Notes: generated by a model not told the origin, from the letters alone. Positions 19,945-31,407 are shown, counted from the stretch's first letter. The stretch: 64,000 nt of DNA from Escherichia phage ECO07P1 (OP172784); one strand, 5' to 3'. Numbers and translations are program-made.

Positions 19945-20669
19945 ATGAAACTAATCTTTTTAAGTGGTGTAAAGCGTAGTGGAAAAGATACTACTGCAGA
20001 TTTTATCATGGAAAATTATTCTGCAGTTAAATATCAACTTGCTGGTCCTATTAAGGATGCATTGGCTTATGCATGGGGTGTATTTGCAGCAAACACTGAC
20101 TATCCTTGCTTAACTCGTAAAGAGTTTGAAGGAATTGACTATGATCGTGAGACTAATTTAAATCTGACTAAATTAGAAGTAATTACGATTATGGAACAAG
20201 CATTTTGCTATCTTAATGGTAAAAGCCCAATTAAAGGTGTGTTTGTTTTTGATGACGAAGGACAAGAATCAGTTAATTCCGTAGCATTTAACAAGATTAT
20301 TGACGTTATAAATAATATTGAAGATCAATGGTCAGTCCGTCGTCTGATGCAAGCCCTAGGTACGGATTTGATTGTTAATAACTTCGACCGCATGTATTGG
20401 GTAAAATTATTTGCTTTAGATTATCTTGATAAATTTAACTCAGGTTATGATTATTATATCGTTCCTGATACTCGTCAAGATCATGAAATGGATGCGGCTA
20501 GGGCGATGGGTGCTACAGTAATTCATGTAGTTCGTCCTGGTCAAAAATCCAATGATACTCATATTACAGAAGCTGGATTGCCAATTCGTGATGGCGATTT
20601 AGTAATTACAAACGATGGTTCTCTTGAAGAACTTTTTTCTAAAATTAAAAATACACTAAAGGTACTATA

Positions 20670-20670: not shown

Positions 20671-21367
<697 letters not shown>

Positions 21368-21379
21368 TTTCACAAAGTT

Positions 21380-21410
21380 GTTTACACGGGGTTTTAGTTG
21401 TGATACTATT
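21380..21410 (+). promoter_or_regulatory. early promoter (GTTTAC -35, extended -10)
   Basis: tcacaaagttGTTTAC, 17-18 bp spacer, tgTGATACTAT. Confidence 0.6.
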
Positions 21411-21445
21411 ACCCTATCAAAACAAATGAGTGATTGGAGAATAAA

Positions 21446-21718
21446 ATGAAAACATTTAAAGAATTTATCAATGAAGCTGCTTTTAACGAAAAAGTAAAAA
21501 TTAGCAAAGCTGTCAAGACTATGATTGATAACATCAATTACCTATATGGTATTGATTTAACTGACTATGTAACAGTTGGTAACAAACGTAACTATTTCGT
21601 GTTTGACATCTCTGAACTTGACCAGAATCAAATTAACAACATTGAGCGTTTTGCTAATGATAAGGGTCTTCGTCATGAGTCAGCGGGTTATAAAAAATAC
21701 GCAATTTATTTAAAATGA
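21446..21718 (+). CDS. internal protein with N-terminal capsid-targeting sequence (ipI locus, copy 1)
   Basis: N-terminus MKTFKEFINEA resembles the T4 CTS MKTYQEFIAE with L/I-x-E cleavage site; SD ggaga. Confidence 0.7.
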   Translation: MKTFKEFINEAAFNEKVKISKAVKTMIDNINYLYGIDLTDYVTVGNKRNYFVFDISELDQNQINNIERFANDKGLRHESAGYKKYAIYLK

Positions 21719-21750
21719 GTTTACTTTTAAATAGGGTTGTGGTACTATTA
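21719..21750 (+). promoter_or_regulatory. early promoter
   Basis: GTTTAC ... tgTGGTACTAT; -35 overlaps the upstream stop codon. Confidence 0.6.
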
Positions 21751-21778
21751 TCTCATCAAAATTAATTAGGAAAATAAA

Positions 21779-22087
21779 ATGAAAACATTTAAAGAATTTA
21801 TCAATGAAGCGGCTGCACCAAAGACATTCATTATTTATACTCAAGCGGGTCTTGATGATGAGTATGCGGAAGCAATTCTGAGGTCACTTGCTAAGAACGG
21901 TGTTGAAGTAATTGCTTCGGACTTTAAGAAAGGGGCTTCCGAGATGTTTATTTCTATAACTAAAGGATCTAAAGCTAAAATCAAATCATCATTCGGTGTT
22001 GCTCGTACCGATCAAATCGACAATCATGACTTTAAACAAACTGGTGCTAAACGACAGAATACAATTGCATCACGCGGAATAAAATAG
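21779..22087 (+). CDS. internal protein with CTS (ipI locus, copy 2)
   Basis: N-terminus MKTFKEFINEAAAPK; 102 aa. Confidence 0.7.
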   Translation: MKTFKEFINEAAAPKTFIIYTQAGLDDEYAEAILRSLAKNGVEVIASDFKKGASEMFISITKGSKAKIKSSFGVARTDQIDNHDFKQTGAKRQNTIASRGIK

Positions 22088-22099
22088 TTTATAAAAACC

Positions 22100-22130
22100 G
22101 TTTACTTTTAGATAGGGTAGTGATACTATT
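22100..22130 (+). promoter_or_regulatory. early promoter with inverted repeat bracketing the -10
   Basis: GTTTAC ... atagggt-aGTGATACTATT-accctat. Confidence 0.6.
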
Positions 22131-22157
22131 ACCCTATCAACTACTGAGGAGAATAAA

Positions 22158-22382
22158 ATGAAAACATGTAAAAAATTTATTGTAGAAGCTAAAAGACACG
22201 AAGACGAACTGCCTTTTGTTTCAAAAACCTTTGATGGAACATTGGCTGATTTTAAAAAAATTCCTAATGATAAACTTGCTAAATTGGTTGGTTCTATTAG
22301 TGAAAAAGATGGCAAGGTCACATTTTCTGCTCAAGGCGTTGCCAATCTCAAGAAACTTTTGAAAGCCGCTGGTGTTGAATAA
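22158..22382 (+). CDS. small protein with CTS-like N-terminus (ipI locus, copy 3)
   Basis: N-terminus MKTCKKFIVEA; 74 aa; SD gaggag. Confidence 0.6.
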   Translation: MKTCKKFIVEAKRHEDELPFVSKTFDGTLADFKKIPNDKLAKLVGSISEKDGKVTFSAQGVANLKKLLKAAGVE

Positions 22383-22385
22383 ATT

Positions 22386-22416
22386 GTTTACATAGGGTTT
22401 TAGTTGTGATACTATT
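22386..22416 (+). promoter_or_regulatory. early promoter with inverted repeat bracketing the -10
   Basis: GTTTAC ... atagggt ... GTGATACTATT accctat. Confidence 0.6.
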
Positions 22417-22443
22417 ACCCTATCAACTACTGAGGAGAATAAA

Positions 22444-22626
22444 ATGAAACGTTGTGAATTAATTCGAAATGTTGCTATTGCAATTTCTGCTTCTGCTTTT
22501 AGTTTTTCAATGTTTGTTGGATTTATATGCGGATTATTGACTACAGCAGAAAATGTTTTTTCACTTGTAGTAGCATTTTTAATTGGTTTAATTGCTATCG
22601 TTATGGATAAAATTTCTAAAGGTTAA
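22444..22626 (+). CDS. small hydrophobic membrane protein
   Basis: 60 aa, mostly hydrophobic; SD gaggag. Confidence 0.55.
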   Translation: MKRCELIRNVAIAISASAFSFSMFVGFICGLLTTAENVFSLVVAFLIGLIAIVMDKISKG

Positions 22627-22628
22627 TA

Positions 22629-22916
22629 ATGATTCTTTATGCGAAAGTATCGTCCGTTGAAAATGGATATAAATATGATCAAGATGCGGCTAAAGCCTTG
22701 ATTGATGATTATGGCATTTTAACATGTTTTGAAGTTGAAAAGGTTTACATTGACCGTTCATCTTCTCAAGTTAAATTAGTAAAGGAAGACCGTAAATTTA
22801 ATACAGTAAATTTTGATTTCTTTATTGAAACAGAAAAAGGTCCTCTTGAATATGATATTTTCAAGAATCCTTTGGGTCTTGAATGCATCGTAAACATGTA
22901 TTATCATAAATGGTAA
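22629..22916 (+). CDS. hypothetical protein
   Basis: 95 aa; ATGA-type overlap with upstream stop. Confidence 0.55.
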   Translation: MILYAKVSSVENGYKYDQDAAKALIDDYGILTCFEVEKVYIDRSSSQVKLVKEDRKFNTVNFDFFIETEKGPLEYDIFKNPLGLECIVNMYYHKW

Positions 22917-24641: not shown

Positions 24642-25205
24642 ATGAAAACTTATGCCGAATTTTTAACCGAAGCAGCAAAATTACCATCTGAAGCAGAACT
24701 TACTAAAGTATTCTTCCAATTGGACCCAAAAGACCGTGGCGATTTTCTTAAGTGGAAAGCTAAAGCTATTGAAATGTATAACATTGATAATAGTTCTTTT
24801 ACGATGAGTCAAGAAAATAAATTCAATAAAGCATTTTTCAAAATTTCTAAGAAACTGGCATCTGGCGCTCAGGTTCCTAAATCTGCCTTAGCTACTCCTG
24901 AACGTGCGCCTGTTAAAATTTCTAAGAATATGTTCGACACTAAAAAATACGTTAATGCTTTGAATAAAGCTCTTGATGCATTGGATGATGCAAAGAAGGC
25001 AGCCCGTGATCTTCAAGACGTGTACATCGATTTTGATCGTAAAACTAAAGGTTCTATTTCAAATAGCGAACGCAATAGTGTAAGCGTTTATTCTGATAGC
25101 CTTGACGTTCTTGGCGATGCGTATACTGAAATTAAAAATCGTATTAACACCGCATCTAAACTAAAAGCTGCCGCAGAAGCTATAATAGCTAAACTAGATA
25201 AATAA
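24642..25205 (+). CDS. 187-aa protein with capsid-targeting sequence (candidate internal protein)
   Basis: N-terminus MKTYAEFLTEAA (CTS-like); lysine-rich helical remainder. Confidence 0.7.
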   Translation: MKTYAEFLTEAAKLPSEAELTKVFFQLDPKDRGDFLKWKAKAIEMYNIDNSSFTMSQENKFNKAFFKISKKLASGAQVPKSALATPERAPVKISKNMFDTKKYVNALNKALDALDDAKKAARDLQDVYIDFDRKTKGSISNSERNSVSVYSDSLDVLGDAYTEIKNRINTASKLKAAAEAIIAKLDK

Positions 25206-28881: not shown

Positions 28882-29684
<803 letters not shown>

Positions 29685-29685
29685 T

Positions 29686-29716
29686 GTTTACTTCCTCCAA
29701 GGACTTTGATACTATA
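29686..29716 (+). promoter_or_regulatory. early promoter for denV
   Basis: GTTTAC, 18 bp, tGATACTAT; SD ggagg then ATG. Confidence 0.6.
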
Positions 29717-29742
29717 CATTCATCAACTACTTGGAGGAAATT

Positions 29743-30156
29743 ATGACTCGTATCAATTTAACACTTGTTTCTGAACTGACCGACCAACATCTTATGGCTG
29801 AGTATCGTGAATTACCACGCGTATTTGGTGCAGTCCGTAAACATGTTCAAAACGGTAAACGTGTAAAGGATTTTAAAATCTCTCCAACATTTATCTTAGG
29901 CACAGGTCACGTAACATTCTTTTACGACAAACTCGAATTTTTACGTTTACGTCAAATCGAGCTAATCGCTGAATGCTTGAAACGTGGTTTCAAAATCAAG
30001 GACACGACTGTCCAGGATATTTCCGACATCCCTGTCGAATTTCGTAATAATTATGTCCCGTCCGAAGCGTCCATTGCGATAAGTCAAGCTCGCTTAGATG
30101 AAAAAATTGCTCAACGCCCTACTTGGTACAAATACTATGGTAAATCAATTTACTAA
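29743..30156 (+). CDS. denV: endonuclease V (pyrimidine dimer DNA glycosylase)
   Basis: 137 aa; [31 protein letters not shown] matches remembered T4 endo V. Confidence 0.95.
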
Positions 30157-30162
30157 GGAAAA

Positions 30163-30421
30163 ATGAAAATGTATCAAGAATTTATCGCTGAAGCAGATGC
30201 CAAAGGCCCCAAATTTAAAGTTAAAGCTTTCGTTGGTGATGCGGAAGACTTTGGCTCATTAAAACGTAATGGGTATTTTTCCTAGGCGGCGATGGTAGAG
30301 AAATAAACACCTATGCAAAACGTAGTGAATTGCTTATGTTGCTGCAAGTCCTAAAGTAGATGTTGACGATATTGGATACGATTTTAACAACTTCGGAATT
30401 ATTTCTGGCGGTGAAGCTTAA
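30163..30421 (+). pseudogene. decayed CTS-type internal-protein gene (frame broken at least twice)
   Basis: ATG with SD aaggaaaa encodes MKMYQEFIAEADAKGPK..., stop after 40 codons; coding-like sequence continues in two other frames. Confidence 0.4.
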
Positions 30422-30424
30422 ACG

Positions 30425-30455
30425 GTTTACGCTTAAGTATTAATATGGTATAATT
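30425..30455 (+). promoter_or_regulatory. early promoter for ipIII
   Basis: GTTTAC, 18 bp, tGGTATAAT. Confidence 0.6.
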
Positions 30456-30484
30456 ACTCTATCAAAACAAACAAGGAAACAAAA

Positions 30485-31063
30485 ATGAAAACGTATAAAG
30501 AATTTATTGCTGAAGCTTCTGTGGAAAAGGCCAAAGGCATTAATAAGGACGAGTGGAACTATCGTGGTGGAAACGGCTTTGACCCTAAAACTGCTCCACT
30601 TGAACGATATCTAGCCACAAAAGCTTCTGACTTTAAAGCTTTCGCTTGGGAAGGACTTCGCTGGCGTACCGATCTAAATATTGAAGTTGATGGGCTTAAA
30701 TTTGGCCATATTCAAGATGTTGTTGCTAGTAACTTGGATGCAGCTTTTGTTAAAGCTGACGGTGACCTTCGTCGCTGGAATTTAAAACTATTCTCTAAAC
30801 AGAAAGGCCCGGTGTTTGTGCCTAAAGCTGGTAAATGGGTTATTGATAATAAATTAGCTAAGGCTGTCAACTACGCTGGTCTTGAATTCGCCAAGCACAA
30901 ATCATCATGGAAAGGTCTGGATGCAATGGCTTTCCGTAAAGAATTTGCTGATGTTATGGCTAAAGGCGGCTTTAAGGCAGAAATAGATACCTCTAAAGGT
31001 ACGTTTAAGGACGCTAATGTTCAGTACGCTTATGCCGTTGCTAACGCAGCCCGTGGTAATTAA
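30485..31063 (+). CDS. ipIII: internal protein III
   Basis: 192 aa; CTS MKTYKEFIAEA; size as T4 IPIII. Confidence 0.8.
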   Translation: MKTYKEFIAEASVEKAKGINKDEWNYRGGNGFDPKTAPLERYLATKASDFKAFAWEGLRWRTDLNIEVDGLKFGHIQDVVASNLDAAFVKADGDLRRWNLKLFSKQKGPVFVPKAGKWVIDNKLAKAVNYAGLEFAKHKSSWKGLDAMAFRKEFADVMAKGGFKAEIDTSKGTFKDANVQYAYAVANAARGN

Positions 31064-31104
31064 TAAGGCCGATACTTAGGCTTATTTACATTTAAAGGAA
31101 ACAT

Positions 31105-31407
31105 ATGAAAACATATCAAGAATTTATTACTGAAGCTCGAGTGAGTGCAGGTAAATTAGAATCCGCTATAAATAAAAAGGCCCATTCATTTCATGATTTG
31201 TCCGATAAAGACCGTAAGAAACTTATAAGCCTTTATATTGACAAAGAGCGTATTCTCGCTCTTCCTGGCGCTAATGAAGGTAAACAGGCCAAGCCTTTGA
31301 ATGCTGTCGAAAAGAAAATTGATAACTTTGCTTCTAAATTCGGTATGTCTATGGATGACCTTCAGCAAGCGGCTATCGAAGCAGCTAAAGTAATTAAAGG
31401 TAAATAA
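31105..31407 (+). CDS. ipII: internal protein II
   Basis: 100 aa; CTS MKTYQEFITEA; size as T4 IPII. Confidence 0.8.
   Translation: MKTYQEFITEARVSAGKLESAINKKAHSFHDLSDKDRKKLISLYIDKERILALPGANEGKQAKPLNAVEKKIDNFASKFGMSMDDLQQAAIEAAKVIKGK

Follow-up and report, generated by a model that had tools for sequence, protein, structure and literature searches.

An internal-protein locus carrying Ip9, Ip7 and Ip8 behind repeated early-promoter cassettes in a T4-like phage

Gene content of the interval between 57B and trna.4

The stretch of DNA analyzed (the window) is 64 kb of Escherichia phage ECO07P1 (OP172784), a T4-like (Tequatrovirus) genome. On the + strand, it carries in order: gene 1 (dNMP kinase), 57A, 57B/Acb1, three short genes, trna.4, trna.2 and a tRNA cluster (Table 1). 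The segment 20900-23000 shares 98.5% identity with Salmonella phage F13076, and 893 phage records match it, nearly all of T-even relatives. Gene 57B forms the conserved left border of the internal-protein (IP) locus. In T4, ipI stands alone between 57B and trna.4, a position that is one of two polymorphic IP loci and that is occupied in the window by the genes of Ip9, Ip7 and Ip8; the trna.3 gene of T4 is absent from the window. The region is, thus, a polymorphic IP locus, bordered by 57B and the tRNA genes, in which T4 ipI is replaced by Ip9, Ip7 and Ip8, and the original prediction of a hyperplastic ipI locus is borne out.

Table 1. Features of the locus and other leader-bearing genes of the window (a slash within a leader marks the predicted cleavage site).
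Feature	Position	Strand	Description
57B (Acb1, anti-CBASS phosphodiesterase)	20912..21367	+	151 aa, 100% identity to T4 57B; Pfam PF23474 Acb1, E = 2.6e-60
Early-promoter cassette 1 (GTTTAC ... TGATACTAT)	21380..21409	+	stem-loop 21388-21415 overlapping the -10 box; -14.8 kcal/mol, z = -2.4
Ip9 gene	21446..21718	+	90 aa; leader MKTFKEFINE/A, codons 1-10; predicted mature form 80 aa, pI 8.9
Early-promoter cassette 2 (Ip7)	21719..21748	+	stem-loop lost; -4.1 kcal/mol, z = +0.7
Ip7 gene	21779..22087	+	102 aa; leader MKTFKEFINE/A; predicted mature form 92 aa, pI 9.7
Early-promoter cassette 3	22100..22129	+	perfect 12-bp stem-loop 22111-22138 enclosing the -10 box; -16.4 kcal/mol, z = -3.9
Ip8 gene	22158..22382	+	74 aa; leader MKTCKKFIVE/A; predicted mature form 64 aa, pI 9.4
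Early-promoter cassette 4	22386..22415	+	stem-loop 22393-22422; -15.0 kcal/mol, z = -2.9; near-identical to T4 trna.4 promoter
trna.4	22444..22626	+	60 aa, hydrophobic (GRAVY +1.30); 100% identity to T4 Trna.4 over 60 aa; phrog_1692
trna.2	22629..22916	+	97% identity to T4 Trna.2; tRNA cluster next
187-aa ORF	24642-25205		starts MKTYAEFLTE/A; past the tRNA/segB region; phrog_2280 ("unknown function")
Ip5-like gene	29403-29684		leader-bearing
ipIII (Ip3 homologue)	30485-31063		leader-bearing
ipII (Ip2 homologue)	31105-31407		leader-bearing

The three short genes belong, as judged by sequence identity, to the named and already known families Ip9, Ip7 and Ip8. Ip9 is 90% identical to RB32 Ip9 and 88% identical to an RB15 protein named Ip9 in UniRef (Q38376), and it matches phrog_7673 (E = 3.6e-54). 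Ip7 is 96% identical to RB32 Ip7 (phrog_2667, E = 3.2e-40), and Ip8 is 90.5% identical to the ip8 product of vB_EcoM-VR5, which is annotated 'similar to Ip8 of Enterobacteria phage RB15' (phrog_8765, E = 2.3e-23). The matching PHROG families are annotated as internal head or virion proteins (E = 1e-23 to 1e-54). GenBank naming is inconsistent among these genes (e.g., the Ip8-like gene of IME08 is labelled 'Ip9'). The start of the Ip9 gene is placed at the ATG at 21446, which lies 7 nt past a GGAG and is used in all annotated relatives; a TTG at 21434 was set aside.

The predicted mature proteins are basic and of 6.9-9.9 kDa (pI 8.9-9.7). As anticipated in the original prediction, the mature regions share no similarity with one another, nor with T4 IPI* (all E > 0.08). 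The companion claim, that they resemble nothing recognizable, does not hold, as they fall into families with members 88-96% identical, and tblastn searches with the mature parts retrieve 183 (Ip9), 283 (Ip7) and 107 (Ip8) phage records. Searches of Pfam, NCBIfam and PDB sequences with all three proteins returned sub-threshold noise only, and weak KH/PNO1-like matches to Ip8 (E = 0.08-0.8) were likewise rejected as noise.

The IPs of RB15, K3 and RB32 are the closest known counterparts, being of the same families (88-96% identical), in the same position between 57B and trna.4 and with a leader of roughly 11 residues. The window differs from these phages only in the combination and order of the genes and in a few substitutions, including a cysteine at position 4 of the Ip8 leader. 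The product of the neighboring trna.4 gene carries no capsid-targeting leader and is a small membrane protein.

Early-promoter cassettes and their proposed exchange among phages

The T4 early-promoter pattern GTTTAC-N15-TGnTAnnAT has 13 matches in the 64-kb window, all on the + strand, compared to 0.01 expected from shuffled sequence; four of these open the cassettes of the locus (Table 1). By contrast, a generic sigma-70 scan found 10 sites versus 10.5 expected, with no enrichment; thus, only the T4 early-promoter consensus picks out the signal. The four cassettes are about 90% similar and form direct repeats, 46-78 nt long and 62-96% identical, at a spacing of 286-381 nt; each extends from the -35 box, past the Shine-Dalgarno sequence, to the first codons, with the ATG downstream. 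Alignment matches them to the ipI and trna.4 promoters of T4. The proposal that three leader-bearing genes each follow an early promoter of their own was confirmed, coordinates included, and that of one short gene for each of four cassettes stands for Ip9, Ip7 and Ip8 but not for the fourth. From the gene arrangement, cassette 4 drives trna.4 together with trna.2, as trna.2 starts 3 nt past the trna.4 stop and has no promoter of its own. The early-promoter pattern has no match between 22416 and 25372, and cassette 4 probably drives the tRNA genes as well.

A stem-loop lies over the -10 box in three of the four cassettes (z = -2.4 to -3.9), with the Ip7 cassette the exception. The stability of the cassette 3 hairpin was reached by 0 of 200 shuffles. 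The same hairpin occurs in the T4 ipI cassette, where the stem (GATGAGGTA/TACCTCATC) is related to that of the window (GATAGGGTA/TACCCTATC) by two compensating base-pair changes, which argues that the cassette hairpin is under selection. The stem-loops were also considered as canonical intrinsic terminators and rejected, since none is followed by a U-run; a terminator scan found 0 terminator-like sites versus 1.3 expected. The left half of cassette 2 resembles the Ip8/trna.4 type and the right half the T4 ipI type (TA[T/C]CTCATCAAAATTAATTAGGAAAAT). The Ip7 promoter cassette, thus, appears to have arisen through a crossover in its interior. No late promoter (TATAAATA) is detected on the + strand in 21300-22450; the supply of IPs during head assembly would, therefore, come from early synthesis or read-through.

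The number, order and identity of the genes differ among T4, RB32, VR5, G4498 and the window, while the 57B and trna.4 borders are conserved. Between these borders, T4 carries ipI, RB32 carries Ip5-Ip9-Ip7, VR5 carries Ip8-Ip9 and the window carries Ip9-Ip7-Ip8, an order also found in F13076, vB_EcoM_G4498 and 310Ecol104PP. The leader of the window Ip9 (MKTFKEFINEAA) is found on Ip7 in RB32, whereas the RB32 Ip9 leader is MKTYQEFISEAA. The leader evidently moves with the cassette and not with the cargo, as the window Ip9 bears the leader of RB32 Ip7. This pattern of cassettes, leaders and gene content fits cassette-mediated shuffling, as earlier proposed.

The 1994 account of these genes by Repoila and colleagues is said to describe an 11-residue leader and ~70 bp of homology that includes an early promoter and a 3' stem-loop, which matches the window cassettes. 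Ip9, Ip7 and Ip8 were named in that year (Repoila, Tetart, Bouet and Krisch, EMBO J 1994). In later papers that relay this work, the T-even phages are described as having two highly variable IP loci (Repoila et al. 1994 via PMC2839356, PMC4122927, PMC12373910 and PMC3012670), and it is credited with recognizing at least ten ip genes by the conserved signal sequence at their N-termini. By 2007, the count of IP variants had passed 30 (PMC2839356), and the IPs are regarded as diverse defense proteins with only the leader in common (PMC3012670).

The cassettes also resemble the PeSL (promoter-early stem-loop) elements of RB49/phi1-type phages (Arbiol et al. 2010, Comeau et al. 2014), in which a repeated promoter and stem-loop flanks small accessory genes, the modules are sites of modular shuffling and a stem-loop overlapping the -10 box is among the described classes. 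In the T-even phages, PeSL-like elements composed of T4 early promoters and AT-rich stem-loops flank the IP genes at the two loci and may mediate their shuffling (PMC2839356). According to Arbiol et al., however, the elements of the T-even IP locus are analogues and not homologues of the PeSLs (PMC2839356); their promoters are of the T4 early type, and their stems, as in the window, are weaker, richer in AT and free of polyG/polyC. The arrangement was thus described in 1994 (Repoila et al.) and its promoter/stem-loop repeats again by Arbiol in 2010, and its recovery here is a rediscovery and adds no new kind of element.

Capsid-targeting leaders and predicted packaging

The Ip9, Ip7 and Ip8 proteins start with MKTFKEFINEA, MKTFKEFINEA and MKTCKKFIVEA, respectively, and so have the leader of about 10 residues (MKT-aromatic-x-x-F) that marks T4-type IPs, although in Ip8 the aromatic residue is a cysteine. 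Each leader ends in a predicted site for the gp21 prohead protease, (L/I)-x-E and then a small residue, at residues 8-11 (INE/A, INE/A and IVE/A), so that the I-x-E/A motif is present in all three. M-K-T, F7, I8 and E10 are conserved in all members of the Ip9, Ip7 and Ip8 families. Position 4 is F in Ip9 and Ip7 and an unusual Cys in Ip8, the homologues of which have Tyr or Phe. In the mutagenesis of the IPIII leader by Mullaney and Black, residues 4 and 7 are assigned to capsid targeting and residues 8 and 10 to processing, and a ten-residue leader is by itself enough for the packaging of foreign proteins in T4 (PMC9026906).

On the basis of the leader, Ip9, Ip7 and Ip8 are predicted to be packaged into virions. 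Against packaging of Ip8 stands Cys4, at a position important for targeting. A search of the literature found no virion proteomics study in which Ip7, Ip8 or Ip9 was detected. Two internal virion proteins of a Klebsiella Jiaodavirus study were considered as evidence for Ip8 and rejected; they are assigned to the other IP locus because their gene numbers adjoin the presumed gene e lysozyme entry.

Seven leader-bearing ORFs are present in the window: Ip9, Ip7, Ip8, an Ip5-like gene, ipIII, ipII and an ORF of 187 aa (Table 1). T4 Ip2 and Ip3 share with the IPs of the 57B-trna.4 interval a leader of the 10-residue type and a presumed packaging route; they differ in mapping to the second locus beside gene e, in having unrelated mature sequences and in having identified GmrSD targets. 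The 187-aa ORF sits outside the classical IP loci and is carried by 164 records, in which it is hypothetical or unannotated in 25 of the 25 listed.

Candidate roles in counter-defense

It is quite probable that the region is a polymorphic IP locus in which Ip9, Ip7 and Ip8 form promoter-leader modules whose products are packaged, injected and likely active in counter-defense. Each module combines a T4 early promoter, the -10 box of which is usually covered by a stem-loop, with a Shine-Dalgarno sequence and 10 codons of leader, and the modules recur about every 300-380 bp. From what is established for T4, the 10-residue leader would bind the scaffold core of the assembling prohead, and gp21 would cut behind Glu10 (I-x-E/A). 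The basic mature proteins of 80, 92 and 64 residues may then remain beside the DNA inside the head and be injected along with it. Being injected with the DNA, the IPs would, therefore, act ahead of any phage gene expression. By analogy to Ip1, Ip2 and Ip3, each protein would most likely neutralize one narrow variant of host defense against incoming modified DNA, for which type IV restriction of the GmrSD type is the leading candidate target. The repeated promoter-leader modules may supply the homology for gene swaps within and between phages.

T4 IPI* is an inhibitor of GmrSD, a type IV restriction enzyme found in E. coli CT596. IPI is encoded at the same locus and behind the same promoter cassette as the window proteins; like them, it starts with an MKTFKEF leader and has a mature form that is small and basic. 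However, the similarity ends after the first 7-9 residues, and the IPI propeptide is of 19 residues (cut at ITE/A) compared to 10 in the window proteins. AlphaFold2 models of Ip7 and Ip9 were built from shallow alignments. The Ip7 model (mean pLDDT 66) has a ferredoxin-like core at 14-72 (pLDDT about 72-86) and a disordered, basic, Lys/Arg-rich C-terminal tail at 74-102 (pLDDT below 50), and the Ip9 model is an alpha/beta sandwich with a mean pLDDT of 75. Fold searches with the two models retrieved generic small alpha/beta folds only and not IPI*. Thus, Ip9, Ip7 and Ip8 in sequence, and Ip7 and Ip9 as modeled, are not close homologs of T4 IPI, a relationship that the original prediction had named as the outcome that would count against it. 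The models are moderately confident and lend no functional support.

The suggestion that these proteins act in anti-restriction stands insofar as T4 Ip1, Ip2 and Ip3 each block a distinct GmrSD type IV restriction enzyme with no cross-protection (PMC12373910); for Ip7, Ip8 and Ip9, a GmrSD target is a candidate by analogy. An expression test of the kind proposed with the original prediction has largely been done: Silas et al. 2025 challenged representative GmrSD systems with expressed ip4-10, none of which inhibited them reproducibly (PMC12373910, Supplementary Fig. 9), and the apparent effects of ip7 on CLS_011 and of ip8 on CLS_018-019 failed to repeat (PMC12373910).

These results bear on an alternative in which Ip9, Ip7 and Ip8 are injected but aimed at defenses other than GmrSD (e.g., other nucleases or sensors of incoming DNA), with the Ip9 cargo a mobile effector domain, or general phage counter-defense module, that has been fitted with a packaging leader and for which the leader is optional. 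Besides the absence of reproducible inhibition of any tested GmrSD group by ip4-10, this alternative is favored by the distribution of the Ip9 cargo, which slightly extends what is described in the literature. A Kagunavirus siphophage encodes the cargo as a stand-alone 72-aa protein without a leader (50% identical; phrog_7673, E = 7e-27), and in the Ackermannviridae phage YX22 it forms the C-terminal ~75 residues of a 972-aa protein. An Ip9-family profile search of 1.84 billion representative proteins recovered 14 members, all unannotated, of which some have T4-type leaders, some lack them and one lies inside an 861-aa protein. A Foldseek search against viral models gave one significant match, an unnamed viral protein of 535 aa that carries the Ip9 domain. 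A proteomics paper on Vi01-like phages held nothing usable on the 972-aa Ackermannviridae protein. The Ip9 cargo domain, then, extends beyond the T4-like phages and beyond leader-bearing proteins, standing alone in Kagunavirus siphophages and fused in proteins of roughly 500-970 aa in other viruses (one of the Ackermannviridae); its occurrence with and without the leader illustrates a leader-plus-cargo modularity. However, all three T4 IPs with known targets inhibit GmrSD enzymes, and the active GmrSD systems tested number eight from a very diverse family (PMC12373910); GmrSD subtypes beyond those eight, therefore, remain likely targets. The alternative of non-GmrSD targets and a mobile Ip9 cargo is, thus, possible though doubtful. 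If it is true, T4-like phages recruit ready counter-defense modules by recombination behind a promoter-leader cassette for pre-emptive delivery, and the set of leader-bearing cargos exceeds the two classical loci, the 187-aa ORF being an example.

A further alternative is that the IPs chiefly serve the virion, as small basic proteins that neutralize DNA charge and aid packaging or ejection without a specific host target. The basic character of the predicted mature forms and the disordered, Lys/Arg-rich tail of Ip7 agree with such a role, as does NMR of T4 heads in which lysines of the internal proteins contact DNA phosphates (PMC3012670). Yet a likewise basic protein, IPI* (pI 9.0), inhibits an enzyme specifically, the ip genes are described as non-essential (PMC12373910), and the extreme variation of gene number and identity in near-identical phages points to an arms race and not to a conserved structural need, making a primarily structural function improbable. 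Least likely is that the leader is retained only as part of a recombining promoter-to-start cassette, with the proteins inefficiently packaged and acting as ordinary early cytoplasmic proteins. In favor of this, the leader codons lie inside a 46-nt repeat in which the Ip9 and Ip7 copies agree at 96%, leaders are swapped from one family to another, the promoters at the locus are early only, the Ip9 cargo occurs leader-less in other phages and Ip8 has Cys4. Against it, dozens of diverged homologues retain F/Y4, F7, I8 and E10 although the neighboring positions vary, which indicates protein-level selection on the leader, and a leader of this length suffices for packaging in the T4 experiments cited above.

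The interpretation of packaged, injected and probably counter-defensive Ip9, Ip7 and Ip8 re-derives a system that is long described; what is slightly new is the leader-less Ip9 cargo in other phage families, the recombinant-looking Ip7 cassette and the unannotated leader-bearing ORF of 187 aa. The locus is a textbook case of phage genome plasticity. Ip7, Ip8 and Ip9 are widespread in T4-like phages of the therapeutic type (107-283 genome records) and are presumably delivered before gene expression. One route to the targets of these proteins leads through the relatives of the Ip9 cargo that lack a leader, and knowing what Ip7, Ip8 and Ip9 act on would help in explaining and predicting which hosts T-even phages can infect.

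Promoter cassettes and expression of the internal-protein genes

The promoter cassette of Ip7 (21719-21778) looks, from its sequence, like the product of a crossover. Its left half resembles the cassettes of Ip8 and trna.4, while the right half, up to and including the Shine-Dalgarno sequence (GGAA, not GGAG), resembles the T4 ipI cassette. With this combination of halves, the cassette has lost the stem-loop that covers the -10 box in the other cassettes.

A search of the + strand (21300-22450) for the T4 late-promoter motif (TATAAATA) found none before Ip9, Ip7 or Ip8, and the closest upstream match lies at 20307, within gene 1. Enough ip protein for head assembly would come either from early synthesis or from read-through.

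Ip8 leader and relatives of the Ip9 domain

The capsid-targeting leader of Ip8 has a cysteine at position 4 (codon 4, window 22167-22169), a position held by Tyr or Phe in every other Ip8 family member retrieved. F13076 encodes an Ip8 that is 100% identical to that of the window and, thus, has Cys4 as well. Leader position 4 is reported to be important for capsid targeting (PMC9026906), and Cys4 might alter packaging efficiency. The Ip names in GenBank are inconsistent: phage IME08 (HM071924 / NC_014260) labels its Ip8 homolog (79.7% identical to the window Ip8) as 'Ip9', in contrast to VR5 (NC_028881), and these Ip genes are labeled hypothetical in many phage records.

Relatives of the mature Ip9 domain (residues 17-90, window 21494-21718) occur without the leader outside the T4-like phages, as a stand-alone ORF in a siphophage (L004) and at the C-terminus of a large Ackermannviridae protein (L006). 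An 861-aa protein and a 535-aa protein also contain the Ip9 domain.

Internal-protein genes and candidates elsewhere in the window, and Ip9-domain relatives in other phages

Features of the second IP locus, the leader-bearing ORF and Ip9-domain relatives
Feature	Location	Strand	Length (aa)	Remarks
Leader-bearing ORF	24642-25205	+	187	phrog_2280; T4-type capsid-targeting leader and cleavage motif, MKTYAEFLTE/A (slash, predicted prohead-protease cut)
Ip5-like gene	second IP locus (29403-31407)	+	93	phrog_3499
ipIII	second IP locus (29403-31407)	+	192	
ipII	second IP locus (29403-31407)	+	100	
Ip9-domain relative	L004:2507-2725		72	Kagunavirus siphophage; stand-alone, 50% identical, no leader
Ackermannviridae protein	L006:628-3543	-	972	phrog_3867 and phrog_7673; C-terminal Ip9 domain

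The window also contains the second IP locus, in which the early-promoter pattern is matched at 29686 and 30425. T4 trna.3 (136 aa) is missing between trna.4 and trna.2 (22626-22629), where trna.2 begins 3 nt beyond the stop of trna.4; the close relative G4498 retains an ORF of trna.3 size (~132 aa) at this position.

The 187-aa ORF lies past the tRNA/segB region and in neither classical IP locus. Its family is labeled 'unknown function', and the ORF is found in 164 phage records, with all 25 of those listed giving it as hypothetical or uncharacterized or leaving it unannotated. This ORF may be an unrecognized internal protein.
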